This document shows positions 1-35,657 of a stretch of 64,000 bases of DNA, one piece after another (positions within the stretch are counted from its first letter, which is position 1; every line of letters begins with the position of its first letter). Location of the stretch: the NCBI GenBank assembly GCA_947367055.1, contig CANBCI010000003.1:24175-88174 (forward strand), given 5' to 3'. A program made the position numbers and the translations under genes. This stretch comes from an uncultured Alphaproteobacteria bacterium (lineage in GTDB: Bacteria > Pseudomonadota > Alphaproteobacteria > Rs-D84). The notes under the pieces are model-generated. The model saw only the letters and a program-made list of their open reading frames with translations, had not been told where the DNA came from and did not search any database.

Positions 1-24
1 AAAAGGCCGAAAAACCGGCCTTGT
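1..24 (-). terminator. Rho-independent terminator for CDS 54..797
   Basis: Minus strand reads GGCCG-gttttt-CGGCC followed by TTTT, immediately downstream of the minus-strand stop. Confidence 0.5.
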
Positions 25-53
25 AGCTAAAACATATAAAAATTTATTATAAT

Positions 54-797
54 TTAATCCAAAAGATAGTCTGGAAAATCGTGAATGACACCTTTATATT
101 TGACCACTCTACTTTTGAAATACTCGAAAAAATTATTTATAATCGCATTGTTCAAACTATATTTCGAAGTACCATACCTAAAAAAATGTTCGAACATATT
201 ACGAAAATTAGAATTAGGACTACTATATAATGGCACCCTTGCACCTTTGTATTTACCTATTTCGTCTGTGGTAATATCTCGACCTGGATGATCAATAAAA
301 TATTTCAAAACGACTTCTGCCTGAGAAATATGTACCCCTTCTTTGTTATGCCGCCTAAAATCTTTAACCAAATGCTTTTGATCGTTTTTAAAAATATATA
401 ATTTACGTTCTATGATATCCAACCTGTAAGAATTTTGGCCTGGATTGCACGAAGCAGCAAATGCTTTTTTCAAATCTTCGAAATTTACGGTAACATCATA
501 TGCTTCACACGTTTTTGCATCAGTTAATATAACGGATGAATCTCCATCAGTAATTGATACTTTCGGTTCAAAACCAATGTGTTCATCATATTTGGTTTCG
601 TGTTTTTTACGAAATTCCAACCCTCTTTCAAATAATGCTTCTAAGATTTCGGCCGCCACATGTATTTGTACCATTTGGCTTTTGCCTTCTTCAGATCCAG
701 GATCATTTTTGTAAAACGGACGAAATTTACTTACTTTTTTCCCATATTCATCGGTTGGGGCAACCCCAAAAGCAATGAATTCCAATGCTTCCGTCAA
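54..797 (-). CDS. hypothetical protein (possible nuclease/HEPN-like, maybe truncated)
   Basis: 247-aa ORF in an AT-rich island. It has an R-x6-H spacing (FRRHNKEGVH) reminiscent of a HEPN motif. No confident family assignment. About 590 bp of apparently non-coding DNA lies upstream. Confidence 0.45.
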   Translation of the reverse strand: MTEALEFIAFGVAPTDEYGKKVSKFRPFYKNDPGSEEGKSQMVQIHVAAEILEALFERGLEFRKKHETKYDEHIGFEPKVSITDGDSSVILTDAKTCEAYDVTVNFEDLKKAFAASCNPGQNSYRLDIIERKLYIFKNDQKHLVKDFRRHNKEGVHISQAEVVLKYFIDHPGRDITTDEIGKYKGARVPLYSSPNSNFRNMFEHFFRYGTSKYSLNNAIINNFFEYFKSRVVKYKGVIHDFPDYLLD

Positions 798-1388
798 AGA
801 AATATTGGTTTTAAGAACAGGTCTAAATTTATCGATGTTTAAAAATGCTAACGTAGGAATTGGTGGGAAAAGGCTTTGAACATAATCTGTTGATATTTAA
901 ACATCTTTTATGATATCTCTGTTTCCATAACACATTTCTCTCATCGCACTTTGGGTGGCGACCATGTCGTTTATTGCCCTTTGACGTTTCGCAGTAGCAA
1001 TATTTATATCTTTTTTGGAAAGCTGAATGTTTACAAAGAATCTTTTCTTAAAAGTATTTGCGCAACAATCAAACATGTTATATCTCTTAATATGAACTAT
1101 TTTACACCAACATATAATAGTTGCAATTAAATTCTGTGTACTGAACGAGCATATAAAAAATTTAGATCTTCGCGCTAAGGGGCCAATTAGTGTTTTTGTT
1201 TTTTGGGATATCGGAATTTATCTAAGGCACCTTAGGGTTCATTGCCTACCGAAATCATAAAACAACTCCTAGGGCTCCCCACCCGTCCACCACCAACCAC
1301 ACGACCAAGGGGTAAAATGTAGTATTTCTATCTTGAAAAATCTGTTTTTTTACCTATATACATACCGACAATAAAAAAAGGAAAAAAC

Positions 1389-2555
1389 ATGGACATATCA
1401 AATATTTACAATTTATCAGAAGAACTATTTGAAAAATACCAGGAAAATCCATTTCCAGATGATGAAATTCGCCCCGGTTTGCAAGAATTTGCTAAAAAAT
1501 TCAAGGAAGAAATAGCTGCTTTGCCAACACCATATGTTATGGCACTGGAAGGGGGCTATGGAACAGGAAAGACATATTTTATAACCAGGTTCTGCGAATA
1601 TCTAAAAAATATTAATTCTGAAGACGATGAATCTATTTTTTCAATATACTTAAATCTGTGGGAACATGATTATGTCGCAGATCCGTTCCCTGTAATTGCT
1701 TCACAAATAATATCAACATTGAATCCCGGCAAGGATTTACAAGATTCTGTAAAAGAAAAAGCAGTTAAAGTTACTAAAAACTTGATAAAATTGGGTGCAA
1801 AAATGTTCGGAAATTTAGATATTAGTGAATTGCTCCCTGATTTAGAACAAGACAAAAAAGACTTATCAGAATTCAAACAAGAAATACAAAGAATCATCGC
1901 TGAAAAAGGTAAAAAAGTTGTATTGGTGGTTGATGAACTAGATCGTTGCAAACCTGATTATGCGGTAAAAACATTGGAAACGATCAAACATTTTTTTGAT
2001 ATTGATGGCTTATTTGTAATCTTAACCACCAAATTAGATTTTATGGATAATATCTGTGAAGCGTATTATGGTCATCCGAATTGTGAAATCAATATGGGTG
2101 AAGGGTATATTCAAAAATTTGTTCAATCTAAGAAAATATTAAACCCAACTTCGACAGAAGATTATTTGTTCATAATAAACGGTATTTTAAACAAAGATAC
2201 TTTACCAGTTAGAATGCCTAATTTTGGACAAGTATTAGAAAGAGATTGTAGAGAAAATTTATCTGCGATAGATGCCTTTAAGAACAATATGGCAGAGCTA
2301 TTTAATTCTGCACAATTTTCAATCAGAAAAACAATAGATGTCTGCAAAGAAGTTTTAAATCTTATCAAAAGTCATAAAGAAGAAATTTGGGAAAGAAAAT
2401 TATATAAATACCCTGAATTCATTATTTCTAGGTATTTAAAAGTAAAACACATATTACCTGATAAAATATCTGATCCAGAAGTTAGATACGAGTACCCAGA
2501 TCAATCTGAATACATCAATAGAGGTGTGGATAACGTGCTTAAAAAATTATTGTGA
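1389..2555 (+). CDS. KAP family P-loop NTPase
   Basis: Walker A GGYGTGKTYF, and VVLVVDELDRCKPDYAVKTLETIKHFF, which matches the KAP NTPase Walker B and signature region. The RBS AAAAGGAAAAAACATG is present. No TM insert is evident. Confidence 0.8.
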   Translation: MDISNIYNLSEELFEKYQENPFPDDEIRPGLQEFAKKFKEEIAALPTPYVMALEGGYGTGKTYFITRFCEYLKNINSEDDESIFSIYLNLWEHDYVADPFPVIASQIISTLNPGKDLQDSVKEKAVKVTKNLIKLGAKMFGNLDISELLPDLEQDKKDLSEFKQEIQRIIAEKGKKVVLVVDELDRCKPDYAVKTLETIKHFFDIDGLFVILTTKLDFMDNICEAYYGHPNCEINMGEGYIQKFVQSKKILNPTSTEDYLFIINGILNKDTLPVRMPNFGQVLERDCRENLSAIDAFKNNMAELFNSAQFSIRKTIDVCKEVLNLIKSHKEEIWERKLYKYPEFIISRYLKVKHILPDKISDPEVRYEYPDQSEYINRGVDNVLKKLL

Positions 2556-2656
2556 ACCATAAGGCGTATTCAGCCAATTATTCAAAAATATCTCACATGT
2601 TTTATCCAAACTAGTAAAATCATTAGGATTTTCAACTCGATACAAGTGAGTTATCT

Positions 2657-2698
2657 CGAGCCAAGTTTTACAAACCGCTCCACCGGGGCGGTTTTTTG
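2657..2698. repeat. Direct repeat copy 1 (cgagccaagtttta[c/t]aaaccgc...cggggcg.tttt)
   Basis: About 40 nt that is roughly 85% identical to 4869..4908. Both copies include a terminator hairpin. Confidence 0.6.
2675..2698 (+). terminator. Rho-independent terminator after KAP NTPase
   Basis: CCGCTCC-acc-GGGGCGG hairpin followed by TTTTTTG. Confidence 0.55.
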
Positions 2699-2848
2699 TT
2701 GGGTTTCCAATACCTGCGCCCGGTTCGATAATTTGTGAATTAAAATCGCAAAATTTACCGAATTATCGAATAAGTTTTATAAAACAACTTGAACTAAATC
2801 ACAAAAAATTTTACCATTATTCCTAATATTAGAGGTAAAATTAACACT

Positions 2849-4108
2849 ATGGCTTTGTATAGATTTATATTAGATTACCAAAAATATACAAATTTTCATG
2901 AAACATATGGAAAATATGTTCGCACCCATTTTCATCCCGACAATGTTGTAACTATTGATACTACAAGTCAACAAAGTTCTCATAGCTCTCCTTTGTTTAG
3001 TAACAAAACGCCTGCATTCAAACTGCGTCCATTGACACCAGATTTTGTGGTTGATGAATTTATTACAAAATGCTGGATTGCATATATAATAAAAAATGAA
3101 CAAAAATATAAGTTTTGGCTGCCTATGGCAAAATTTATAGGAATTGTGGCTCTAATTTTTTATGCCGTATCATTTATCTGGCTAACTGACACAAAAGGAA
3201 ATTCTTTTTCTGAACTGTGGTATATATTAGCTTGCATAATAGGTATAGTGACACTGCTTATATGTGGTGTGGCTTGTACAATGGACGATAATTCAGTAAG
3301 GCTATCTGACGGAGAAAAAATACAACTTATTCGTTCCCGTACGCGTTACCCCTCAAACATATCTCAAGTTTTAAAAAATTTAAATTCTTCTTATCCACAA
3401 AATTCTCATAGTTTATATACAAACGCTAAAAAAACTGAAATAACAGACACAGAAATGACTGCAATGTTAAGGAAACTTAAAGAACATCATATTGATGGGA
3501 AAACTTTGGCAAATTATAAAGATGAAGAAAGAGAAAAATTGTTCATAGAACATTTCAGTGATGAAGAAAAAGGAAAAATTGCAAATGATAGATTTAATCA
3601 CAAATATATTTATCCTGCACGAAAAGATGTCTTAAACAAACTAATCAACGAAAGCGAATTTGAAGATAATTCAATAAAAACAAACCTGTTGGACAAAGTA
3701 AAATCGTTTGACGGTGCAATTTCAAAGGGCGAATTTGAAAGCATTGTTGACGAGATTATGGCTTTCAAAGAAAAGAAAAAGCGGATAGACAACCACGTTA
3801 AATATGAAGGACGTCTGAGCAACAAAGATATACAAACCATAAAAGAACACTTAGGATACGTGTGTATGGCTTGTGGGTTAGACCCAATTGAAGAATATGG
3901 CGAAAATATGAAGGGCATAATGGAAGCCCACCATAAAAAGCCCTATGCTGATATACAAGAAGGAGAAAGCCGAACTGTAGAACCTGATGATTTCCTTATT
4001 CTGTGCCCAAATTGCCACCGTTTAATACATAAACTAGGCTCGCCCGATGATTTGGATGGATTGAAAGAATTAGTCAACAAACCAACACGGTCTGCGTGGT
4101 GGGATTAG
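2849..4108 (+). CDS. membrane-anchored HNH endonuclease
   Basis: Two hydrophobic helices (FIGIVALIFYAVSFIWL and LWYILACIIGIVTLLICGVACTM). The C-terminal HNH motif is CMACG...EAHHKKP...N...LCPNCHRLIH. Confidence 0.8.
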   Translation: MALYRFILDYQKYTNFHETYGKYVRTHFHPDNVVTIDTTSQQSSHSSPLFSNKTPAFKLRPLTPDFVVDEFITKCWIAYIIKNEQKYKFWLPMAKFIGIVALIFYAVSFIWLTDTKGNSFSELWYILACIIGIVTLLICGVACTMDDNSVRLSDGEKIQLIRSRTRYPSNISQVLKNLNSSYPQNSHSLYTNAKKTEITDTEMTAMLRKLKEHHIDGKTLANYKDEEREKLFIEHFSDEEKGKIANDRFNHKYIYPARKDVLNKLINESEFEDNSIKTNLLDKVKSFDGAISKGEFESIVDEIMAFKEKKKRIDNHVKYEGRLSNKDIQTIKEHLGYVCMACGLDPIEEYGENMKGIMEAHHKKPYADIQEGESRTVEPDDFLILCPNCHRLIHKLGSPDDLDGLKELVNKPTRSAWWD

Positions 4109-4122
4109 GAAAGAGGTAAAAA

Positions 4123-4782
4123 ATGGTACTTGGAAGTGTCGCTGACATTATAACTGCACTTGGAACTGCCATAATGGCAGCGGTAGCAATTTTTGCCTTA
4201 CGTACTTGGCGGAAAGAATTTGTCGGGAAAAAGAAAATAGAACTAGCAGCACAAATTATGCAGTATGTATACGACATTCAAGATATGTTAATTGGTGTTA
4301 GATTGCCAACAATAGCCAAGACTGAATTAGACGATGCTTATGAATGGATAAAAAGAGAAACAGAACTGCATCCTGGTAACGCTGAAGTATATCCAGAAAG
4401 AGTTAAATATCTAGTTCCCCATAGGAGATTAAGTAAAAAACAAGAAATCATTAATAAATTTCGAAGATTACAGAATCCGGCATATATGTATTGGGGTAAA
4501 GAAATGATAGTGGCATTTGTCAAATTGACCGCTTACAACTTAAAAATTATGCAGGCATCTAAGCAATTATACTACGGTGAAGACACCCCAGAATACAAAC
4601 CATTATATGACATTATATTTTATGAAATTAAAGATAATAAAATGGACCCTAACGATAAAATCAATGCGGAAATCGACACAATTGTTGAAGAATTTAGAAT
4701 AAATTTAGAGCCACTTTATAAAGACAAAAAAACATCATGGAAAGCATTAGATTCAACGGGGAAAAAACAAACTGTCCAATAA
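4123..4782 (+). CDS. N-terminally membrane-anchored hypothetical protein
   Basis: N-terminal TM helix MVLGSVADIITALGTAIMAAVAIFAL. RBS GGAAAGAGGT is 15 nt after the HNH stop, suggesting a likely operon with the HNH gene. Confidence 0.6.
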   Translation: MVLGSVADIITALGTAIMAAVAIFALRTWRKEFVGKKKIELAAQIMQYVYDIQDMLIGVRLPTIAKTELDDAYEWIKRETELHPGNAEVYPERVKYLVPHRRLSKKQEIINKFRRLQNPAYMYWGKEMIVAFVKLTAYNLKIMQASKQLYYGEDTPEYKPLYDIIFYEIKDNKMDPNDKINAEIDTIVEEFRINLEPLYKDKKTSWKALDSTGKKQTVQ

Positions 4783-4868
4783 ATGTTATTCGCTTATATC
4801 AACGCAAATCGTACTATATAAATTTGAAAACAATTCATTAAGTTCCACTCGATAACCGCAAGATTCCC

Positions 4869-4908
4869 CGAGCCAAGTTTTATAAACCGCCCCATCGGGG
4901 CGATTTTG
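4869..4908. repeat. Direct repeat copy 2
   Basis: Matches 2657..2698. Confidence 0.6.
4885..4908 (+). terminator. Rho-independent terminator after HNH/TM operon
   Basis: GCCCC-atc-GGGGC hairpin followed by a T-run. Confidence 0.55.
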
Positions 4909-5041
4909 GTTGGTCGTGCGCATATTTTTTTGCGATATGCCGCAAAATTCGATCGCATCAATATTCTATTGATTTTTGCCATATTATCTGGGAAAATTTT
5001 GTTGCACAGGGTCAAAAATATATTCTGGAAAGGATTTGTAT

Positions 5042-5581
5042 ATGGCACACATCATCGCTGGATTTGGGGGCATCGGAAAAACAACATTGGCCAAAAAATA
5101 TAAAAACGTGGTGGATTTGGAATCCACGCCCTATAAATACATATTTCCAGATTATGACAACCTGGACACCAACACCAAAGAAGCTATTAAAGGCAAAGGT
5201 GCAATCAAAAAAGTTCTCAATCCGGATTTTCCAAACAATTATATCGCGGCAATCAAAGAAAACATGGACAAATACGATTACATCCTGGTTTGGTGTCACC
5301 CGGATGAGGCTCTGCCCCACTTGGATGCGGCGGGTATTGACTATGAACTATTCCTGCCGACACGCGACGCGTTGGATGAATATCGCCAGCGTTTCATAAA
5401 CCGCGGCAATTGTCCCGAATATGTAAACCGTGTCAGCAGCAAAGAAGATTATGATATGCGCCTGCCTCAATTTATGGCGACTGGAAAACCCATTGTGTTT
5501 CTGGGACCAGGCGAAACACTAACCAGCCACTTGCAAAACAATCCAGCATATGCCACGTTGATACCGCGCAACGGCATGTAA
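5042..5581 (+). CDS. small P-loop NTPase / kinase-like protein
   Basis: Walker A AGFGGIGKTT. ATG start with AAAGGA RBS. About 180 aa. Confidence 0.6.
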   Translation: MAHIIAGFGGIGKTTLAKKYKNVVDLESTPYKYIFPDYDNLDTNTKEAIKGKGAIKKVLNPDFPNNYIAAIKENMDKYDYILVWCHPDEALPHLDAAGIDYELFLPTRDALDEYRQRFINRGNCPEYVNRVSSKEDYDMRLPQFMATGKPIVFLGPGETLTSHLQNNPAYATLIPRNGM

Positions 5582-5603
5582 AAAGAGAAATAAAGGCGGC
5601 AGA

Positions 5604-5843
5604 ATGAAATACACAAACGGCGCGGGCACTTTTACCACAAGTCAGATGAGCATCGATGAAACCATACAAGAAACAATTGATGTCATTGATATTGCAATTG
5701 CAGTACTGAATAATGACGCCGACATACCGCACGCGTTAATCAATCTAAACGCGGCACAGACATATTTGGAACACATACGAAAAAAGTCGCAAATCGCCCT
5801 TGCCCATGTTCCGACAGAAATTCAAAACAAAGAATATTTATAG
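5604..5843 (+). CDS. hypothetical protein
   Basis: 79-aa ORF with RBS AGGCGG, followed by a terminator. Confidence 0.4.
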   Translation: MKYTNGAGTFTTSQMSIDETIQETIDVIDIAIAVLNNDADIPHALINLNAAQTYLEHIRKKSQIALAHVPTEIQNKEYL

Positions 5844-5855
5844 GCCAAAAACACA

Positions 5856-5884
5856 TAAAAAACCGGTTTTATAACCGGTTTTTC
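5856..5884. terminator. bidirectional terminator
   Basis: AAAAACCGGTTTT-ataa-CCGGTTTTT palindromic hairpins between convergent genes. Confidence 0.5.
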
Positions 5885-5911
5885 TATACCCATATATGAC
5901 AGAGCGTATTA

Positions 5912-6172
5912 TTATGCACGCCCCTGGTTAGCATTTGATGTATGTTTCGCAATATATTTGCGGGCCGCCTCTGACTTTGCCCAATAATACTGCAGTTCCT
6001 TTATTTTTTCTTCTTTTTTTGAATCATTTGATTTTCTGTATATTTCCAATCCATGCTTATAATAATTTTCAGACATCAACCAACTGCGCGCATCTTTTAA
6101 CGAGCTGAATGTGTGTCCATCCACGGTTTCCGTAATACAATGGCCACAATTGGAATAAATAACTTTTTTCAT
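5912..6172 (-). CDS. hypothetical protein
   Basis: ORF beginning MKKVIYSNCGHCI with an AAGGTG RBS. No recognisable domain. Confidence 0.4.
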   Translation of the reverse strand: MKKVIYSNCGHCITETVDGHTFSSLKDARSWLMSENYYKHGLEIYRKSNDSKKEEKIKELQYYWAKSEAARKYIAKHTSNANQGRA

Positions 6173-6241
6173 GTTTTTCACCTTTTTTGCTGTTTTAATT
6201 AAAAATATCACAAAAGTATTATTTTGTCAATAATTAGTTTT

Positions 6242-6844
6242 TTATAATCCGAACTTATACACCGCGCCAAGATATACCTGCGTTGCGTCAACATCGGTCG
6301 AACCATTATCATGGTCAACCTGGCCGAAATAAACGTACTTAAATCCCAAATCCAAATCAATGCGCGCGTTCAGGCGAAACAATACGCCAACCATCACCTG
6401 GCCGGATAAATCAAAGGCATTATCAAGATGTCCGGCCACTTCGCCCCATATACCGGAAAGCCCGACACCACCGCCCACATACGGTGCAAACGCATTGTCA
6501 AATTCGTACAACGCATAAACGTTCAGCATGTTCGCCCATATATCATATTCAAAATTAGTGTCATCTTTACTATACTGGGCCCCCATGTACAGTGTTTCAT
6601 ATTCCACCCGCAAATAATCCGTCAGGTTATTTCCCATTGTCGTGCCAAACCCCAGTCCGTTATCCAGATATTTCTGGCGCCAACCGGCATCATTTTTATA
6701 TGAATACGAACTGTGCTGATTCACATACAGGCGCACGCCCGCATAACTGTCGCGCGACGTGTTTCGGCAATCACATACCGGGCATTCATGCGCGCCCGCC
6801 GCGCCGCTTATCAAAACAAACAAAACAATAACTAACTTTTTCAT
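6242..6844 (-). CDS. outer-membrane beta-barrel protein (OmpA/OmpW-like porin family)
   Basis: Signal peptide MKKLVIVLFVLISGAAGA, alternating aromatic beta-strand pattern, C-terminal ...AVYKFGL. Confidence 0.7.
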   Translation of the reverse strand: MKKLVIVLFVLISGAAGAHECPVCDCRNTSRDSYAGVRLYVNQHSSYSYKNDAGWRQKYLDNGLGFGTTMGNNLTDYLRVEYETLYMGAQYSKDDTNFEYDIWANMLNVYALYEFDNAFAPYVGGGVGLSGIWGEVAGHLDNAFDLSGQVMVGVLFRLNARIDLDLGFKYVYFGQVDHDNGSTDVDATQVYLGAVYKFGL

Positions 6845-6984
6845 CCCGTTCCCCTGGGGGGTATTACCACTAAATGATTACAGAAAACCCCGTAAACACA
6901 ATATGATTATTATCCGCATGCGGACACCTGGGACAAAATAATTCGCTTTATTTCCTGTATTTTTATTTGTACAATATAAAAGCT

Positions 6985-8346
6985 ATGAAAAAAATCGAGA
7001 TTCCAGAAAGTATAAAAATTGAAGGCGGACACAAGCTGCGCGATGGCGCGTTTGTAAAAATCAGCGGTGCCAAGAACGAGGTTTTGGGCGCCATGTGTGC
7101 GGCCGTTTTAACCGACAAACCGGTAAAATTTACAAATGTCCCATATATAACGGACGTTATGGATTTAATTGATATAATGCAGGACATTGGCATCCGCACC
7201 CGGTATCAGCCAAATAAAAAAACGCTTGATATTCATGCGCAGCGAATAGAATCAAATGAACTGAACGAATCCGCATTAAAATTTCGGGCGTCATATTATA
7301 TATGGGGCGCCCTGTTGGGGCGATTTGCCAAAACGGGCGAATTTAATTCATTAAAAATCAAGGTTCCCGGCGGATGCGCCGGATTCGGCACAAACGGCAC
7401 GCGTCCGTTCGATTTTCATATAAACCTGCTGGAAAATGTGTTCGGCGCCACACTGCATGACACGGGCAAGAATCTGGAATTCATATTGCCCAAATCATTT
7501 GACGCAGGCGCCGAACCGATTTATTCCACAACGCGCGTTTCACACGGGGCAACATTTCATTGGATGCTGTCGGTGGCCCTGTCCCCGCATCTGAAGATGA
7601 TGTTTAATTCATCCCTGGAACCAGAGGTATCGCACCTGTTAAGTATTTTGAATAAAATGGGGGCAAATATCCGCGGCACAAATTCAGAGGCGATAACCAA
7701 CCTGGGCAATGCGGGCTTTCTGTTAAACGGCGGGGAATTTGAAATCATGCCGGACAGATTGGAAACCGGTTTTTATGCGCAATTGGCAATGGCGACAAAA
7801 TCAAAAATAAGCCTGATTGGAACCGATGCACCGTCATGCCGGCCATGGTTAAACACAATGATTGAAATCGCCGGAAAATCAAAGTGCAAAATCGGCAAAA
7901 GATCAATGGAATTTGATTTTCATAATTTACGCGATTTTACGGGTCGCAACATGATTATTTCCCCTATCCCGGGCAAGGGAACAGATATGCACCAAACATG
8001 GGCACCAGTATTGTCCATGGCGACCAGTCAATCAAAAATATACGATCCGATATACGAAAACCGCACGCGGCATTTGCCGGAACTGGCTAAATTTGGGTTG
8101 GATTCATCGTGCCGGGTGTTTGACATAAAAAATTCTGTCGCGCCAAAGTCCAGCGAGATTATAATAAACCCGTCCATATTGCGGCCTGCGGTTGCCCATG
8201 GCATGGACTTGCGCGGGACCGCGGCACTGATTATCGCGGCGGCAATGGCAAATGGTGAAAGCACACTGTATGACATCGGATATGCCCTGCGCGGATACCC
8301 GAATTTGATTCAGAATCTAAAAAATATTGGCATTCATGTGAAATAA
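6985..8346 (+). CDS. UDP-N-acetylglucosamine 1-carboxyvinyltransferase-like (EPT family, divergent MurA)
   Basis: KISGAKNEVL and the PGGCAG active-site Cys region resemble MurA ISGAKNAALP and PGGCxIG. Length is MurA-like, with an insertion after the Cys loop. Confidence 0.6.
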   Translation: MKKIEIPESIKIEGGHKLRDGAFVKISGAKNEVLGAMCAAVLTDKPVKFTNVPYITDVMDLIDIMQDIGIRTRYQPNKKTLDIHAQRIESNELNESALKFRASYYIWGALLGRFAKTGEFNSLKIKVPGGCAGFGTNGTRPFDFHINLLENVFGATLHDTGKNLEFILPKSFDAGAEPIYSTTRVSHGATFHWMLSVALSPHLKMMFNSSLEPEVSHLLSILNKMGANIRGTNSEAITNLGNAGFLLNGGEFEIMPDRLETGFYAQLAMATKSKISLIGTDAPSCRPWLNTMIEIAGKSKCKIGKRSMEFDFHNLRDFTGRNMIISPIPGKGTDMHQTWAPVLSMATSQSKIYDPIYENRTRHLPELAKFGLDSSCRVFDIKNSVAPKSSEIIINPSILRPAVAHGMDLRGTAALIIAAAMANGESTLYDIGYALRGYPNLIQNLKNIGIHVK

Positions 8347-8463
8347 AATTGGAATATCGTCCTATGGAAAATCACGACATATAGGGTAGACTAAATAACG
8401 GCTTACCAGAAAGGGCGAAGAGGCATCACCGAGAGAGTCGCCCACATATTCAAATTTCCACAA

Positions 8464-8829
8464 TTAAATACATGTATATTCATAAGAACGCGGCATCTTG
8501 TACATGTTTTGTGTCACCGCGTCAACGAATATAGGCAACACGCCAAATAATCCGCCCGGAATTATATCCAAAAATACGGCGGCCCCGTTCAATACAGGCT
8601 GAATAGTTGGCGCACCACATTCCGCGTTCTTGCTTTCAATCAATATTTCACCCTTTGAGGTTAGGGTTCTTTCCTCGCCCGGGCGTATTTTATACATTCC
8701 CATGGTGCCGGATGCGGTTATAATATCATCTGAATTATTGCGTATTGTAATGTCCCGATTTCGACCGATTCCCATCGCCCCGCATGATGCAAGAAACAAA
8801 ACAGAACAAATTAAAATAATATTTTTCAT
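8464..8829 (-). CDS. lipoprotein, hypothetical
   Basis: Signal peptide with lipobox LASC. Confidence 0.55.
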   Translation of the reverse strand: MKNIILICSVLFLASCGAMGIGRNRDITIRNNSDDIITASGTMGMYKIRPGEERTLTSKGEILIESKNAECGAPTIQPVLNGAAVFLDIIPGGLFGVLPIFVDAVTQNMYKMPRSYEYTCI

Positions 8830-8913
8830 GCGCGCCCTTTTCTTTTATACGGGATTATAATCCCATATAATATTCATATCAAGCGCCATATTTCCATTGT
8901 ATTAGATTTTTAG

Positions 8914-11900
<2,987 letters not shown>

Positions 11901-11967
11901 GTTTGATATTATATCACAAATTATCACATTAAAAAAACATAAAAAAACGGGACATTGCCCCGCTTTT

Positions 11968-13752
11968 TTATTCGCCGATAAAACCGCACGACTGCATCCG
12001 CCACAAGCGCGCATAAATTCCGCCGCGCCGCCTTATCAAATCCGCATGCCGCCCAGATTCCGCAACGCGCCCATTTTCCAGAACGATTATGCGGTCTACA
12101 TGCTTTAACGTGGACAGTCTATGCGCGATTATCAGACATGTCCGATTTCGCGTCAAATGTTCAATTGATTCTTGAACAACCGCCTCTGACTGGCTGTCCA
12201 GGGCAGATGTTGCCTCGTCCAGGACTAATATCGGCGCATCCTTTAGAAACGCACGTGCAATGGAAACCCGCTGGCGCTGACCGCCGGACAGTTTTATTCC
12301 GCGCGTACCGACAACGGTTTTGAATCCGCGCACGGTTTTCATGATAAAATCAAACGAATTTGAACGCCGTGCGGCATCCTGAATTTCGCCAAAACCCGCG
12401 TCCTCGCGGCCGTACCCTATGTTTTCACGCAATGTACGATTAAACATCGTTTCATCTTGGGGAACGAACGCGATATTGCGGCGCAGTGAATCCTGGGTCA
12501 CATCACGGATATTTTGCCCGTCAATCAGGATTTCGCCCCGCGTCGGGTCATAAAACCGCATAATCAGCCGGGCCAATGTCGTCTTGCCATTTCCAGACAA
12601 CCCAACAATGCCAATCTTTTCCCCGGGTGCGATTTTCAAATTAAGATTTTGCAAAACATATTCTTTTGCGTCCGGAAAACGAAACGACAGGTTTCGAACC
12701 ACAATTTCACCACGGGCCACATTTAATTCCGGCGCACCTGGCGCATCGCAAATCGTGACGGGGCGCACCAGTTCGCGATACGCGGACTTTGCGCTGCTGT
12801 ATCCCTTGACCATGGCCGGCACTTTTAGCAGCATTTCAAATACCATATCGGTCACGGTTTTATATGTCATGATACAGAACACCGCGTCACCCGCCGTCAT
12901 GTGCCCCCGCATCGCCAGCCATATGCACACCCCCATGCACGCAATAACCGCAAAATCCAAGATATAAGAACTGGGTATCCAGAAATAGCAATCCGCCAAT
13001 TCATGCTTTATTCCGATACGACGCAACCGTTCGCGCGCCGGGCGCAAAATTTCGCGTTCGCGACGCGCGCCCGCAAACAGTTTCACCGTTATGAAATTGG
13101 ACAAACTGTCGTTCAATGCCCCAGAAATATCGGAATGCAAATCAGCCCACTTGTCCGACCATTTTGCCAAAACCGGCATGGAATAAATTGTCCAGATTAC
13201 ACCGATTAAATTAAACCCAAAGAACATTGCCGCCAATAGTGGACTGGCCTGTATCAGCAGTATCGTCGACAATATCACAACACCAAACGAAACGGAAAAA
13301 GAAACCCAGCCCTCTGGCATGCAGGCATAAAACCCCTCGTTTATATAATCCATGTTGCGCGCAATTTTTCCGGGTTCCGTCTTTGAATAAAATGAAATCG
13401 ATTGCGAATTGACATAGGTCTGCAAATCCTCCGATATGTGCATGCGGGCGTATTCCTCTATCTTGCGTTCGAAAAAATAACGCAAAAACCACGCGACATG
13501 CACGGCCGCCATGACCGCGGCAAATCCAACCAGCAACGGCATCGCATACCCCAGCAAATTTTCCACCGGCGGATTCCCAATCCAATCAATTATGTATTTG
13601 CTAAATATCGGGTACAAGGAATACTGAACCAAGCGCGCAAACACCAGCGCACCAAAAAATCCCGCCAGCCAACCCTTTTTCGCAAACAGATATTTCGACC
13701 AAAAACGCCATAACGATTTCGGCAAGTTCGTATTTTTTATATATTTTTTCAT
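11968..13752 (-). CDS. ABC transporter permease/ATP-binding protein (MsbA-like exporter half-transporter)
   Basis: Six TM helices followed by an NBD with Walker A GLSGNGKTTL, signature LSGGQRQRVSIARA and Walker B ILVLDEATSALD. Confidence 0.9.
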   Translation of the reverse strand: MKKYIKNTNLPKSLWRFWSKYLFAKKGWLAGFFGALVFARLVQYSLYPIFSKYIIDWIGNPPVENLLGYAMPLLVGFAAVMAAVHVAWFLRYFFERKIEEYARMHISEDLQTYVNSQSISFYSKTEPGKIARNMDYINEGFYACMPEGWVSFSVSFGVVILSTILLIQASPLLAAMFFGFNLIGVIWTIYSMPVLAKWSDKWADLHSDISGALNDSLSNFITVKLFAGARREREILRPARERLRRIGIKHELADCYFWIPSSYILDFAVIACMGVCIWLAMRGHMTAGDAVFCIMTYKTVTDMVFEMLLKVPAMVKGYSSAKSAYRELVRPVTICDAPGAPELNVARGEIVVRNLSFRFPDAKEYVLQNLNLKIAPGEKIGIVGLSGNGKTTLARLIMRFYDPTRGEILIDGQNIRDVTQDSLRRNIAFVPQDETMFNRTLRENIGYGREDAGFGEIQDAARRSNSFDFIMKTVRGFKTVVGTRGIKLSGGQRQRVSIARAFLKDAPILVLDEATSALDSQSEAVVQESIEHLTRNRTCLIIAHRLSTLKHVDRIIVLENGRVAESGRHADLIRRRGGIYARLWRMQSCGFIGE

Positions 13753-33266: not shown

Positions 33267-33827
33267 TTAAACGGACATAATGTCGTTTTCTTTTTGCTTT
33301 GCCAATGCGTCAACTTCCGCCGCACGCGCATCAAAGACCTTTTGAATGTCGTCTTCAAATTTGCGCTGATCATCTTCGGAAATTTCCTTGTCCGTGACGG
33401 CGCGCTTGATTTTGCCCATTGCATCCTGGCGAATATTGCGCATGGAAATCTTGGCTTCTTCGGCGTATTTGCCCGATACCTTGACCAATTCCTTGCGGCG
33501 TTCTTCGGTAAGCGGCGGCAGATTCAAACGAATAACACCGCCGGCCGTCATCGGATTCAAGCCCAGCCCCGAATCACGGATTGCCTTTTCCACGGCGGCG
33601 GCGTTGGATGCGTCCCATACCGTCACAGACAATGTCTGGTTGTCGGGTGCGGAAACCGTCGCCACCTGGTTCAGGGGCATATCCGCGCCATAAACCGGCA
33701 CGCGCACCCCGTCCAGCAAATGCACGGACGCACGTCCCGTGCGTAACCCGGCGAATTCATTTTTCAAAACTTCAATTGTTTGCAGTGTTTTTTGTTCGAC
33801 TTCGGCCTTTAAGGCTTGATAATCCAT
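33267..33827 (-). CDS. frr: ribosome recycling factor
   Basis: Full-length RRF similarity (LRTGRASVHLLDGVRVPVYG...). Confidence 0.9.
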   Translation of the reverse strand: MDYQALKAEVEQKTLQTIEVLKNEFAGLRTGRASVHLLDGVRVPVYGADMPLNQVATVSAPDNQTLSVTVWDASNAAAVEKAIRDSGLGLNPMTAGGVIRLNLPPLTEERRKELVKVSGKYAEEAKISMRNIRQDAMGKIKRAVTDKEISEDDQRKFEDDIQKVFDARAAEVDALAKQKENDIMSV

Positions 33828-33907
33828 ATTGGTCTCCTTAATTTAAAAAAAGATTAGCAAATTGATTTGACATTTGGCAAGAAGAAATATAGAATACAAT
33901 TCCGCAT

Positions 33908-33983
33908 GGGGTTGTAGCTCAGTTGGTAGAGCACTTGCATGGCATGCAAGGGGTCGTCGGTTCGAGTCCGATCAGCTCCACCA
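33908..33983 (+). tRNA. tRNA-Ala (GGC)
   Basis: Cloverleaf folded by hand: acceptor GGGGTTG/CAGCTCC with the G3:U70 Ala identity pair, anticodon loop ATGGCAT, T-loop TTCGAGT, CCA encoded. Confidence 0.8.
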
Positions 33984-33995
33984 AGAATGCAGTAT

Positions 33996-34073
33996 GGCGG
34001 GTGTAGCTCAGTTGGTTAGAGCACCGGTTTGTGGTACCGGTTGTCGCCGGTTCGAATCCGGTCACCCGCCCCA
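33996..34073 (+). tRNA. tRNA-His (GTG)
   Basis: G-1 extra nucleotide pairing with C73, anticodon loop TTGTGGT, T-loop TTCGAAT, CCA encoded. Confidence 0.8.
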
Positions 34074-34077
34074 TTAA
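34055..34077. repeat. attL-like: tRNA-His 3' end (23 bp) direct repeat copy 1
   Basis: AATCCGGTCACCCGCCCCATTAA. Confidence 0.7.
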
Positions 34078-34085
34078 AATGAAAA

Positions 34086-34108
34086 GACCACCGCAAGGTG
34101 GTGTTTTT
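34086..34108 (+). terminator. terminator after tRNA pair
   Basis: GACCACCGCAAGGTGGTG hairpin followed by TTTTT. Confidence 0.6.
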
Positions 34109-34233
34109 ATTTTAATCGCGATGTGTATTGGGTTCGAACCGGCCGGTTCGTGTGCGAAGTTGGCGAGAACAAGCATTGCGCAGTTCAAGCCTTACGAGCC
34201 GAAAGGGGCCCATCGCGAAGCGATGGGAATTAC

Positions 34234-34256
34234 AATCCGGTCACCCGCCCCATTAA
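34234..34256. repeat. 23-bp perfect direct repeat of tRNA-His 3' end (copy 2) within a tRNA-like fragment
   Basis: Identical 23-mer preceded by a GGTTCGAA T-loop-like fragment and followed by a terminator-like hairpin (GCCGCCGTTTGGCGGATTTTTT). Confidence 0.7.
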
Positions 34257-34346
34257 GAAAGCCGCCGTTTGGCGGATTTTTTAATGGGTGTGTGGCACCG
34301 TGATGAGATGCGTCCCAATACACAATCCGACCACAATCATAAAAAA

Positions 34347-34376
34347 CTTGAAAAACAAGGATTTTTGTACTATAAT
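34347..34376 (+). promoter_or_regulatory. consensus sigma70-type promoter
   Basis: TTGAAA, 17-bp spacer, TATAAT. Confidence 0.5.
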
Positions 34377-34505
34377 AAAAGCACAATTAAAACCACCGTT
34401 TTTTCGGTGGTATTTTTTACAAGCCAAACCACGCATGGTTCTCCTGATTTTATTTGCACAATTTAAACGGTCGTTTTTATAAAAAATAAAAACAGGAGAA
34501 TAACT

Positions 34506-35657
34506 ATGGAAAATTATCTTAATATGAAAGGCATTATCGATACATTGGCCTCAAATGAATTGAATAAAGACACAAATTTTTCCGGATTCAAAAATATTAA
34601 AGAAAATGGTTTTAATGCGCCTAATGGCATTGATCCTAAAACTTATTATAACAATGAAACAAACAATCTTATTAACATGATTGAACGGGCACGTGAAGAT
34701 GACTCGGATGAAGCAAAAAAATTTTTACAAAATGCCGACTTTATTGGAAAAATATTTGCCGGTGATATTAAAAGCCTGAGCCATATTTCATTATTGGAAA
34801 AAGTTATAGACTCTAAGGCTTTACTTATAAAAGTATTCACTTTTTTAGCATACAGACAATTGCCTAATGAAACAAAATATTATTTGTTAGTAACATTGGC
34901 CAATAATTATGTAACTATAATGCAAGGCGCGGACGCTACGCGCAGATTAGTAAATTTTCTAGTCAACAATGAAATATCGCTAGGTATGCAATCGGAAAAC
35001 GGGCTGACCTATCCCACAAAGGATCAGGTTATACGGATGATTTCCGATTACTTTAATCAAAAACTTGATGCATATTCAAACTATACCAAACAGGAAATAA
35101 GTTGGGATACAACAAGCCAACTTATGAATGACCTTAAGTGGGCATTAAATACTCTTGAAGAAAATTTTAATAAACCAGAATTATTAAATGAGATGAAAAA
35201 AACATATAATGCAGTGTTTAATGCCTCTAATACCAATTATATACCTTATAGGGGGTCATTAGAGCATGACATAGTAGATGCCAGGGAAAAAATAAGAAAC
35301 CTGGAAACAGAACTCAAAAACCAAAAAAGCTTGAAACTTGAGCTAGAAGATAAAATTAAGGGATTAGAAAAAAGTGTGGAATTAAAGACAAAAGAAAAGA
35401 ACAATTATGAAATTGACAACAAGAATTTGACAAAAGCTCTAAACGAACAACGTGGTGAAAATTTTATGCTGAAACAGGCATTGGAAAAAGAACAGCTTAA
35501 GACAAACAAGGCGGAAAATACGGCAACCAAAACACAGGAAAAACTGCAAAAACTAATCCAAGGGGTCGAAAATGTAAAATCCGGCCTGGGCAGTCGCGGC
35601 GTCAATAAATATAAAAAAATGGTTACACAAATCGCTGCACAAACAAAGGAAAAATAA
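34506..35657 (+). CDS. hypothetical protein with C-terminal coiled coil (effector-like)
   Basis: AT-rich, Asn/Lys-rich, long heptad-like C-terminal region (LETELKNQKSLKLELEDKIKGLEKSVELKTKEKNN...). RBS AGGAGAA. Confidence 0.6.
   Translation: MENYLNMKGIIDTLASNELNKDTNFSGFKNIKENGFNAPNGIDPKTYYNNETNNLINMIERAREDDSDEAKKFLQNADFIGKIFAGDIKSLSHISLLEKVIDSKALLIKVFTFLAYRQLPNETKYYLLVTLANNYVTIMQGADATRRLVNFLVNNEISLGMQSENGLTYPTKDQVIRMISDYFNQKLDAYSNYTKQEISWDTTSQLMNDLKWALNTLEENFNKPELLNEMKKTYNAVFNASNTNYIPYRGSLEHDIVDAREKIRNLETELKNQKSLKLELEDKIKGLEKSVELKTKEKNNYEIDNKNLTKALNEQRGENFMLKQALEKEQLKTNKAENTATKTQEKLQKLIQGVENVKSGLGSRGVNKYKKMVTQIAAQTKEK

Follow-up and report, generated by a model that had tools for sequence, protein, structure and literature searches.

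Bacterial defence operons that pair a nuclease with an NTPase include Septu (PtuA/PtuB) and Gabija. Sixteen nuclease-NTPase defence operons were analysed by Ragucci et al.; the genes are co-conserved and the proteins form complexes (10.1101/2025.07.10.664194). KAP P-loop NTPases were shown by experiment to act in phage defence, for which Walker B was needed, and the validated proteins carry fused C-terminal regions, with an effector of approximately 300 amino acids (aa) in EF_KAP (PMC13552941, 2026). A further strategy is that of SNIPE (PD-lambda-1), a nuclease bound to the membrane, which cuts phage DNA while it is being injected. In SNIPE a variable N-terminus is followed by a middle domain that binds DNA and by a conserved nuclease domain; deletion of its transmembrane (TM) segment was toxic, and two TMs were present in 7% of its homologues (PMC13190303). 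Here we compared with these systems three adjacent genes from an uncultured Alphaproteobacteria bacterium (Rs-D84), which encode a KAP NTPase (KAP388), a predicted membrane-tethered HNH nuclease (HNH-TM) and a small membrane-anchored protein (TM219). They lie within a stretch of 64,000 nucleotides (nt), hereafter the window (contig CANBCI010000003.1, positions 24,175-88,174, of assembly GCA_947367055.1).

An earlier note, made from the letters of this DNA, had read the three genes as a candidate defence or abortive-infection module, resembling systems of an NTPase sensor and a membrane/nuclease effector. All island proteins of the window were compared with 210 fetched loci (labelled L below) by tblastn and phmmer. 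The three genes were not conserved as neighbours, which the note itself had regarded as decisive against such a system, and nothing supported abortive infection specifically. Positions 1-6200 of the window are probably the right part of a composite island, built up as one element after another integrated at the 3' end of a tRNA-Asn gene, and holding at least two independent modules. On this reading, the adjacency of the KAP and HNH genes is a by-product of integration and not functional coupling. The new element is the HNH-TM/TM219 module, which is SNIPE-like but non-homologous; KAP388 is a known candidate (PADLOC PDC-S20). The analysis shows the structures and boundaries of the genes, the repeats, the statistics of co-occurrence, sequence conservation and a predicted topology, whereas the defence function and mechanism proposed below are inferred.

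Boundaries and neighbourhoods of the KAP and HNH-TM genes

The open reading frames (ORFs) of KAP388 (1389-2555, 388 aa), HNH-TM (2849-4108, 419 aa) and TM219 (4123-4782, 219 aa) were all on the plus strand. The GC content was 0.29-0.38 over positions 1-5000, compared with 0.45-0.56 from position ~9000, on the side of ligA (8926-10932). The co-orientation of the genes and the AT-rich island described in the earlier note were thus confirmed, and the view of the segment as horizontally acquired, defence-island-like DNA was supported.

A GC-rich hairpin of 10 bp followed by a T-tract (2672-2694; -19 kcal/mol, z -2.5) was located between the KAP stop codon and the HNH-TM start. The hairpin after TM219 (4888-4902) was a weaker, degraded copy (z -0.43). 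HNH-TM and TM219 were separated by 14 nt, not by the 15 nt counted previously, and TM219 was preceded by a good Shine-Dalgarno sequence, AAGAGG. Judged by sequence, KAP388 and HNH-TM/TM219 would be separate transcription units, the latter two genes forming a predicted bicistron. A 65-nt direct repeat (78% identical, both copies on the plus strand) bracketed HNH-TM and TM219, each copy consisting of an arm, a core corresponding to the 3' end of tRNA-Asn and a hairpin. The core of repeat 1 (2631-2695) was CTCGAGCCA at 2655-2663, followed by the terminator hairpin; the core of repeat 2 (4843-4907) was CCCGAGCCA at 4867-4875, followed by the degraded hairpin.

Both repeats were homologous to the 3' end of tRNA-Asn(GTT) (...GCCCGAGCCA) and its terminator in L082, L084 and L088. 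The tRNA-Asn 3' end and terminator were directly upstream of HNH-TM in L082, and the tRNA-Asn was ~210 nt upstream of HNH-TM in L084. A counterpart of repeat 1 was observed upstream of HNH-TM in L205, L206, L209 and L210, and repeat 2 matched positions 86-133 of L082 and a copy after the B-type TM219 gene (TM219B) of L204-L207. In L204-L207 the HNH-TM/TM219 unit was bracketed by the same two copies, which resemble attachment (att) sites, and was followed by a syntenic outer-membrane protein (OMP) gene, whose product was 62% identical in aa sequence to the OMP of the window (6242-6844). No tRNA was present in window positions 1-9000, indicating that both copies are att-type scars made of 7-9 nt of the tRNA end plus downstream sequence. 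The repeats were also considered as integron attC sites; this was ruled out, since each of them duplicates a tRNA-Asn 3' end together with the terminator.

When the window was aligned to L088-L091 by blastn, nucleotide homology was limited to 1332-2669. This plus-strand KAP cassette, comprising the KAP gene and the right arm of the island, was 84.7% identical in nucleotides to the right end of the L088-L091 island (87% aa identity in the KAP). The island of L088 begins at a tRNA-Asn and has the KAP as its final gene. After the KAP came the same arm (TTTTCAACTCGATACA..GAGTTATCTCGAGCCA) and CTCGAGCCA, and then the sequence that L088 itself has downstream of its tRNA-Asn, which is an attR. The position of the KAP as the last gene in L088, with the arm and attR behind it, indicated that KAP388 is the cargo at the end of an island that integrates at tRNA-Asn. 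HNH-TM was already in place downstream of the tRNA. The traits of a tRNA island found in the window were the direct repeats copying the tRNA 3' end and the AT-rich composition; the integrase and the intact tRNA-Asn, the latter presumably just to the left, were not in it.

Five lineages of KAP388 were recovered, and HNH-TM was nearby only in the window. The other four contexts were a HindVP restriction-modification (R-M) system upstream of KAP388 with metK behind it (L088-L091); a DpnII R-M system, AIPR, KAP388 and Gabija (L092-L093); a serine recombinase, DUF2924, KAP388 and a 1378-aa protein (L094-L096); and a DpnII R-M system, TM219, two reverse genes and KAP388 (L179-L181). No partner was conserved with KAP388 across the five contexts. 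A large serine recombinase was present in three of them; small serine recombinases were used as defence-system markers in the study of validated KAP proteins (PMC13552941). Among approximately 16 HNH-TM lineages, a KAP was found within the flanks only in the window and L206, leaving ~14 of 16 without, and the remaining HNH-selected loci, 1.59 Mb in all, contained no KAP. The two KAPs were different, both were outside the left repeat, and they were on opposite strands. The L206 KAP, also of the PDC-S20 family, was 522 aa long, was 34% identical and was located beside HipA. The order and spacing of KAP, HNH-TM and TM219 were not conserved at any locus.

A single defence system of all three genes, with the KAP as the sensor of infection that switches on the membrane nuclease, would fit the adjacency and shared orientation of the genes and the lack of an effector domain in KAP388 itself. 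Nuclease-NTPase pairs are moreover a recognised class of defence operon, and here too the NTPase gene adjoins the nuclease gene on the same strand. However, the terminator and the att-like repeat part KAP388 from HNH-TM, the homology of the KAP cassette stops at this repeat, and co-occurrence of a KAP with HNH-TM was limited to 2 of 16 HNH-TM and 1 of 5 KAP388 lineages, HNH-TM being absent from 4 of 5 KAP388 lineages. No PADLOC model of Septu (PtuA/PtuB), Gabija or another such system matched the trio. Several observations nevertheless speak against the composite-island reading. Two different PDC-S20 KAPs adjoin the same HNH-TM/TM219 unit (window and L206), and KAP388 shares an island with a TM219 in L179-L181, at a distance of 1.5 kb in L179; these proximities are more coincidence than strict independence predicts. 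KAP388 might also need a partner, because it is without the fused effector region of the validated KAP proteins, and the integration model was reconstructed from other loci, with the intact tRNA-Asn and the integrase off the window. On the other side, the KAP of L206 lies beyond the repeat and is encoded on the opposite strand, and two opposite-strand genes lie between TM219 and KAP388 in L179. The variable orientation, variable spacing and att boundaries make co-localisation in defence islands the better explanation, and both the three-gene system and any functional KAP-HNH link appear very unlikely. Taken as a composite island, the locus illustrates cleanly how operon-like adjacencies arise when elements integrate in tandem at a tRNA hotspot, and this tRNA-Asn locus is a caution for the discovery of defence systems through guilt by adjacency.

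Gene order in the KAP388-bearing islands was itself variable. L092 and L179 had a common backbone (large serine recombinase, DUF2924, Dam methyltransferase, N4/N6 methyltransferase, DpnII ... KAP388 ... LppC), in which one slot was occupied by AIPR in L092 and by TM219 and two reverse genes in L179; L092 additionally had Gabija after KAP388. These slot differences illustrate cassette turnover in the islands. In L094, the 1378-aa ORF (8454-12590) was 284 nt downstream of the KAP388 orthologue, between recombinase genes, and had no match in Pfam or PADLOC.

The HNH-TM nuclease family and its TM219 partner

HNH-TM (2849-4108, plus strand) belongs to a family of approximately 75 clusters from uncultured Alphaproteobacteria of the gut and rumen, with lengths of 385-437 aa. 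The family is rare; when 1.84 billion representatives were searched exhaustively with a profile, only 41 were recovered at E<=1e-30. The protein starts with a variable N-terminal region (residues 1-88, two variants), followed by a two-TM hairpin (~94-145), a linker rich in glycine and serine (G/S; 146-196), a conserved helical domain (197-335), a McrA-like zinc-finger HNH core (336-396) and a C-terminal tail ending in WWD. The two TM helices reported before were therefore present, but they occupy the N-terminal third of the protein and are not central. Two TMs joined by a short, K/R-poor loop were found in 61 of 64 members, implying an N-in/C-in topology with a cytoplasmic nuclease, as predicted from sequence. 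Mean pairwise identity across the family was 16% in the TM hairpin, 54% in the helical domain and 74% in the HNH core. The AlphaFold2 (AF2) model was confident at residues 200-415, with a predicted local distance difference test score (pLDDT) of ~90.

The motif C339xxC342, H361H362, C386xxC389H390...H394 was invariant in 64 homologues, except for C386 and C389, which were conserved in at least 90%. The cysteines and histidines of the motif previously written as CxxC...HH...N...CxxCH were accordingly retained, but the canonical HNH Asn position aligned to the invariant D381 and not to the N of CPNCH. The match to Pfam HNH (PF01844) was sub-threshold (19.1 bits, cut-off 21.4). By profile, the closest solved relative was McrA (6ghc), with a marginal E value of 0.075 over the HNH core only. 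The assignment to HNH was made because of the motif conservation and this marginal match. No named system was found for HNH-TM or TM219 in PADLOC, NCBIfam and Pfam. The proposal of a putative nuclease anchored in the membrane was supported, its family being an unnamed one, and the literature searches yielded no account of a defence family of the TM-HNH type.

TM segments were present in 20 of 27 wider relatives forming an intermediate shell around the family, 17 of them having exactly two. By contrast, 85 of 86 proteins that shared only the HNH core had none. The retention of TMs in the relatives and their absence from core-only proteins indicated that membrane anchoring is a selected trait of the clade. 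Type I/II R-M genes and PDC candidates were among the neighbours of HNH-TM. A search of GenBank phages and IMG/VR returned HNH-core matches only and no TM219, and the HNH-TM family was absent; a phage or prophage origin of the unit was ruled out on these grounds.

HNH-TM resembled SNIPE in its overall plan, being a single polypeptide with an N-terminal inner-membrane TM anchor, a cytoplasmic middle domain and a C-terminal nuclease, in the topology predicted here. In both, the nuclease is the best conserved part and the N-terminal region the least (for HNH-TM, HNH core compared with TM hairpin). However, the nuclease of HNH-TM is a zinc-finger HNH and that of SNIPE a GIY-YIG of the T5orf172 type; the middle domain is not DUF4041; and HNH-TM has a disordered G/S-rich linker, is often paired with TM219 and has a naturally split variant. 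Neither DUF4041 nor GIY-YIG was detected in HNH-TM with Pfam at E<=0.1, and the four weak PADLOC hits included no SNIPE/PD-lambda-1 model. The likeness to McrA was in the CxxC...HH...CxxCH...H zinc-finger core, which aligned with 6ghc; HNH-TM differs in Asp381, found in place of the canonical Asn, and in that a TM hairpin, the linker and a helical domain of a novel type take the place of McrA's N-terminal modified-DNA-binding domain. HNH-TM was not assigned to the McrA-type enzymes, as the HNH core alone aligned and no DNA-binding fold was recovered in fold searches. Zorya and Kiwa couple membrane sensing to DNA targeting (PMC12904381), and HNH-TM with TM219 would be a minimal two-protein membrane unit of this kind; however, there was no homology to ZorA-E or KwaA/B in PADLOC, and in HNH-TM the nuclease itself is the membrane protein.

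TM219 (4123-4782, plus strand), the second cistron, has the single N-terminal TM anchor reported before, followed by a predicted cytoplasmic helical bundle. Its model (pLDDT 86) showed a helix continuing from the TM and the helical bundle, with generic four-helix-bundle matches only. The family contains approximately 60 clusters with the invariant motifs W-x-x-EF-x-GKKKIELA and NLEPLY. B-type TM219 was directly downstream of HNH-TM in all six lineages (the N-terminus of the window protein, L002, L082, L101, L204-L207 and L208-L210), whereas A-type TM219 was next to HNH-TM in none of four cases (L177, L178, L179 and a second copy in L208) and was often beside R-M genes (Fisher p 0.0048 for adjacency, B vs A). 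HNH-TM and the 219-aa gene are thus a recurrent pair. The window TM219 was an A/B recombinant with its crossover in the invariant W-x-x-EF-x-GKKKIELA motif. Over residues 1-28, identity to B was 57-86% and identity to A 14-39%; over residues 46-219, identity to A was 56-72% and identity to B 28-33%. Of the B type, the TM helix alone was kept next to HNH-TM. This chimera suggests that the cytoplasmic bundle of TM219 is an exchangeable cassette. The second, A-type copy of L208 (6296-6753) was frameshifted, and its contig also carried an HNH-TM/TM219B pair; this copy followed an ICEA-family gene and two methyltransferase genes, again placing an A-type TM219 beside R-M genes.

HNH-TM, with B-type TM219 as its co-factor, may represent an undescribed family of inner-membrane-tethered HNH nucleases that arrived independently at the strategy of SNIPE, in which phage or plasmid DNA is destroyed where it enters, a reading we put forward tentatively. 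The flexible linker, helical domain and McrA-like HNH nuclease would face the cytoplasm, and foreign DNA would be cut on its entry at the membrane. Spatial or partner specificity would come from the tether and the variable N-terminus by a SNIPE-like logic, possibly together with McrA-like substrate selectivity; the variable N-terminal/TM module and the swappable bundle of TM219, an optional and exchangeable membrane-anchored accessory, would set the target range. Slippage in the G/S linker might serve as an on/off or release switch. In L206 (3964-5129), and also in L204 and L205, HNH-TM was split into ORFs of 174 and 218 aa by a frameshift in the region coding for this linker. The frameshift was identical in the three independent assemblies, and the nuclease ORF was intact, starting at an internal Met (MDNALKSM). 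The split may mark a pseudogene, a switch made by slippage-prone repeats, or a free nuclease that the cell tolerates. If a free nuclease is tolerated, a model of pure membrane sequestration is weakened. This counts against entry-point destruction, as do the neighbours of HNH-TM, which were often housekeeping genes in a scan that gave family counts only; the fold searches, which gave no specific match for the HNH-TM helical domain or TM219 (Foldseek of the HNH-TM model against the PDB returned nothing at E<0.25); and the derivation of a defence role for HNH-TM and KAP388 from context and analogy.

Three other readings of HNH-TM were weighed against this one. If it were in essence a McrA-like restriction nuclease of type IV (modification-dependent), its specificity would come from DNA modification and the anchor would be secondary. 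The identity of its closest solved relative is consistent with this, as are its more distant sequence relatives, which were DUF3578-HNH proteins, one of them annotated as 5-methylcytosine-specific restriction enzyme A; the intact free nuclease ORF of L204-L206 also suggests that the nuclease is not intrinsically toxic. However, the McrA match was marginal and confined to the core, no modified-base-binding domain was recognised in HNH-TM by Pfam or fold searches, and the TM hairpin has been kept in the family and most wider relatives, pointing to selection for anchoring; we therefore regard type IV restriction as unlikely. An addiction pair, in which TM219 neutralises the nuclease and stabilises the island, would account for the tight and recurrent gap of 14-15 nt and for the constant position of B-type TM219 after HNH-TM. 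Yet HNH-TM was intact with no TM219 downstream in approximately 10 of 16 lineages, TM219 was frameshifted beside an intact HNH-TM in L082, and A-type TM219 occurred without any HNH-TM. These same lineages depart from the obligate co-occurrence of a type II toxin-antitoxin or nuclease-immunity pair, which was rejected, and a toxin-immunity role of TM219 is most improbable. A homing-type mobility nuclease driving the insertion of mini-islands beside tRNA genes is extremely unlikely. HNH-TM was often the first gene after a tRNA, namely Asn (L082, L084), His (L002) or Gln (L010), and the 2.2-kb HNH-TM/TM219 unit was repeat-flanked with no integrase inside, both of which would suit such an enzyme; a membrane anchor and a long linker, however, are hard to square with a chromosomal homing nuclease, the repeats fit the attL/attR pattern of integrase-mediated tRNA insertion, and no tRNA was found within the fetched flanks of L003 and L104.

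If HNH-TM does defend by cutting DNA at the membrane, spatial discrimination between self and non-self would have at least two evolutionary origins, in which neither the nuclease nor the middle domains are related. Such discrimination, so far shown for SNIPE, would then be a general design principle. The locus would also provide a compact, testable 2.2-kb module from a clade, the uncultured gut Alphaproteobacteria, in which hardly any immunity has been characterised.

KAP388 as a stand-alone NTPase

KAP388 (1389-2555, plus strand) matched Pfam KAP_NTPase (PF07693) at E 1.7e-29 with 103.5 bits, compared with a cut-off of 20. Walker A (G58xGKT62), Walker B (D182E183) and D185R186C187 were invariant in 30 orthologues, and no TM segment was revealed by hydropathy over the 388 aa. 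The family, the Walker A and DELDRC signatures and the missing TM insert were thus all as the earlier note had them. Classical KAP NTPases, the subject of Aravind et al. in 2004, reportedly have TM helices inserted in the NTPase domain. Set against these, KAP388 is a soluble KAP variant.

In PADLOC, KAP388 matched the single-gene candidate PDC-S20 at E 4.4e-47 over model positions 9-331 of 464, the last ~130 positions being absent. No paper on 'PDC-S20' was found in the literature. KAP388 shared the conserved Walker A/B and DRC motifs with PDC-S20 and the validated KAP proteins and occurred as a lone gene in defence islands; it was, however, shorter, had no TM helices and was without the ~300-aa C-terminal effector region of EF_KAP. 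No fused effector domain was detected with Pfam and PADLOC. As the terminal cargo of one integrative island with its own terminator, KAP388 may act alone as an NTP-hydrolysing defence switch. Its match to PifA was weak and partial. QatABCD was ruled out, as the QatA score was sub-cut-off and partial (45 bits compared with a cut-off of 600, residues 154-207 only) and no Qat partners (QatB, the QueC-like QatC, the TatD protein QatD) were found in the flanks with Pfam and PADLOC.

Flanking genes and a second tRNA-adjacent slot

To the left of the KAP cassette, an orphan ORF of 247 aa (54-797, minus strand) was AT-rich (GC 0.31-0.37) and had no match in Pfam, PADLOC or NCBIfam. It is cargo of the KAP-bearing island, the left part of which, with the intact tRNA-Asn, presumably extends leftward off the window.

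Further orphan cargo, on both strands and outside both modules, was located between repeat 2 and the core genes (4976-6211) and may be another small module. It contained a P-loop protein (GxxGxGKT; plus strand) running from 4976 or 5042 to 5581, for which 5042 is the likely true start (179 aa) and which had a weak match to Zeta_toxin (E 0.008). An ORF of 79 aa (5604-5843, plus strand) had a 48% identical homologue in L089. It was convergent with an ORF of 99 aa (5912-6211, minus strand), and a bidirectional hairpin (5857-5884) was located between the two.

On the right flank, the core genome begins with the OMP beta-barrel gene (6242-6844, minus strand; Pfam OMP_b-brl, 1.3e-17). This was followed by a gene for a 459-aa protein of the EPSP_synthase family (MurA/AroA-like; 6967-8346) and then by ligA. 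In L084, ligA and an OMP gene were also near the tRNA-Asn and HNH-TM, in a different order and orientation, so that synteny was only loose.

Elsewhere in the window, frr (33267-33827, minus strand), tRNA-Ala (33908-33983) and tRNA-His (33997-34073) were followed by an AT-rich ORF (34506-35657; 383 aa, GC 0.31-0.32) with no match in Pfam or PADLOC. This region (33267-35657) is a second variable tRNA-adjacent slot of the genome. The frr-tRNA-Ala-tRNA-His synteny was shared by L002, where the slot was occupied by HNH-TM and TM219B.

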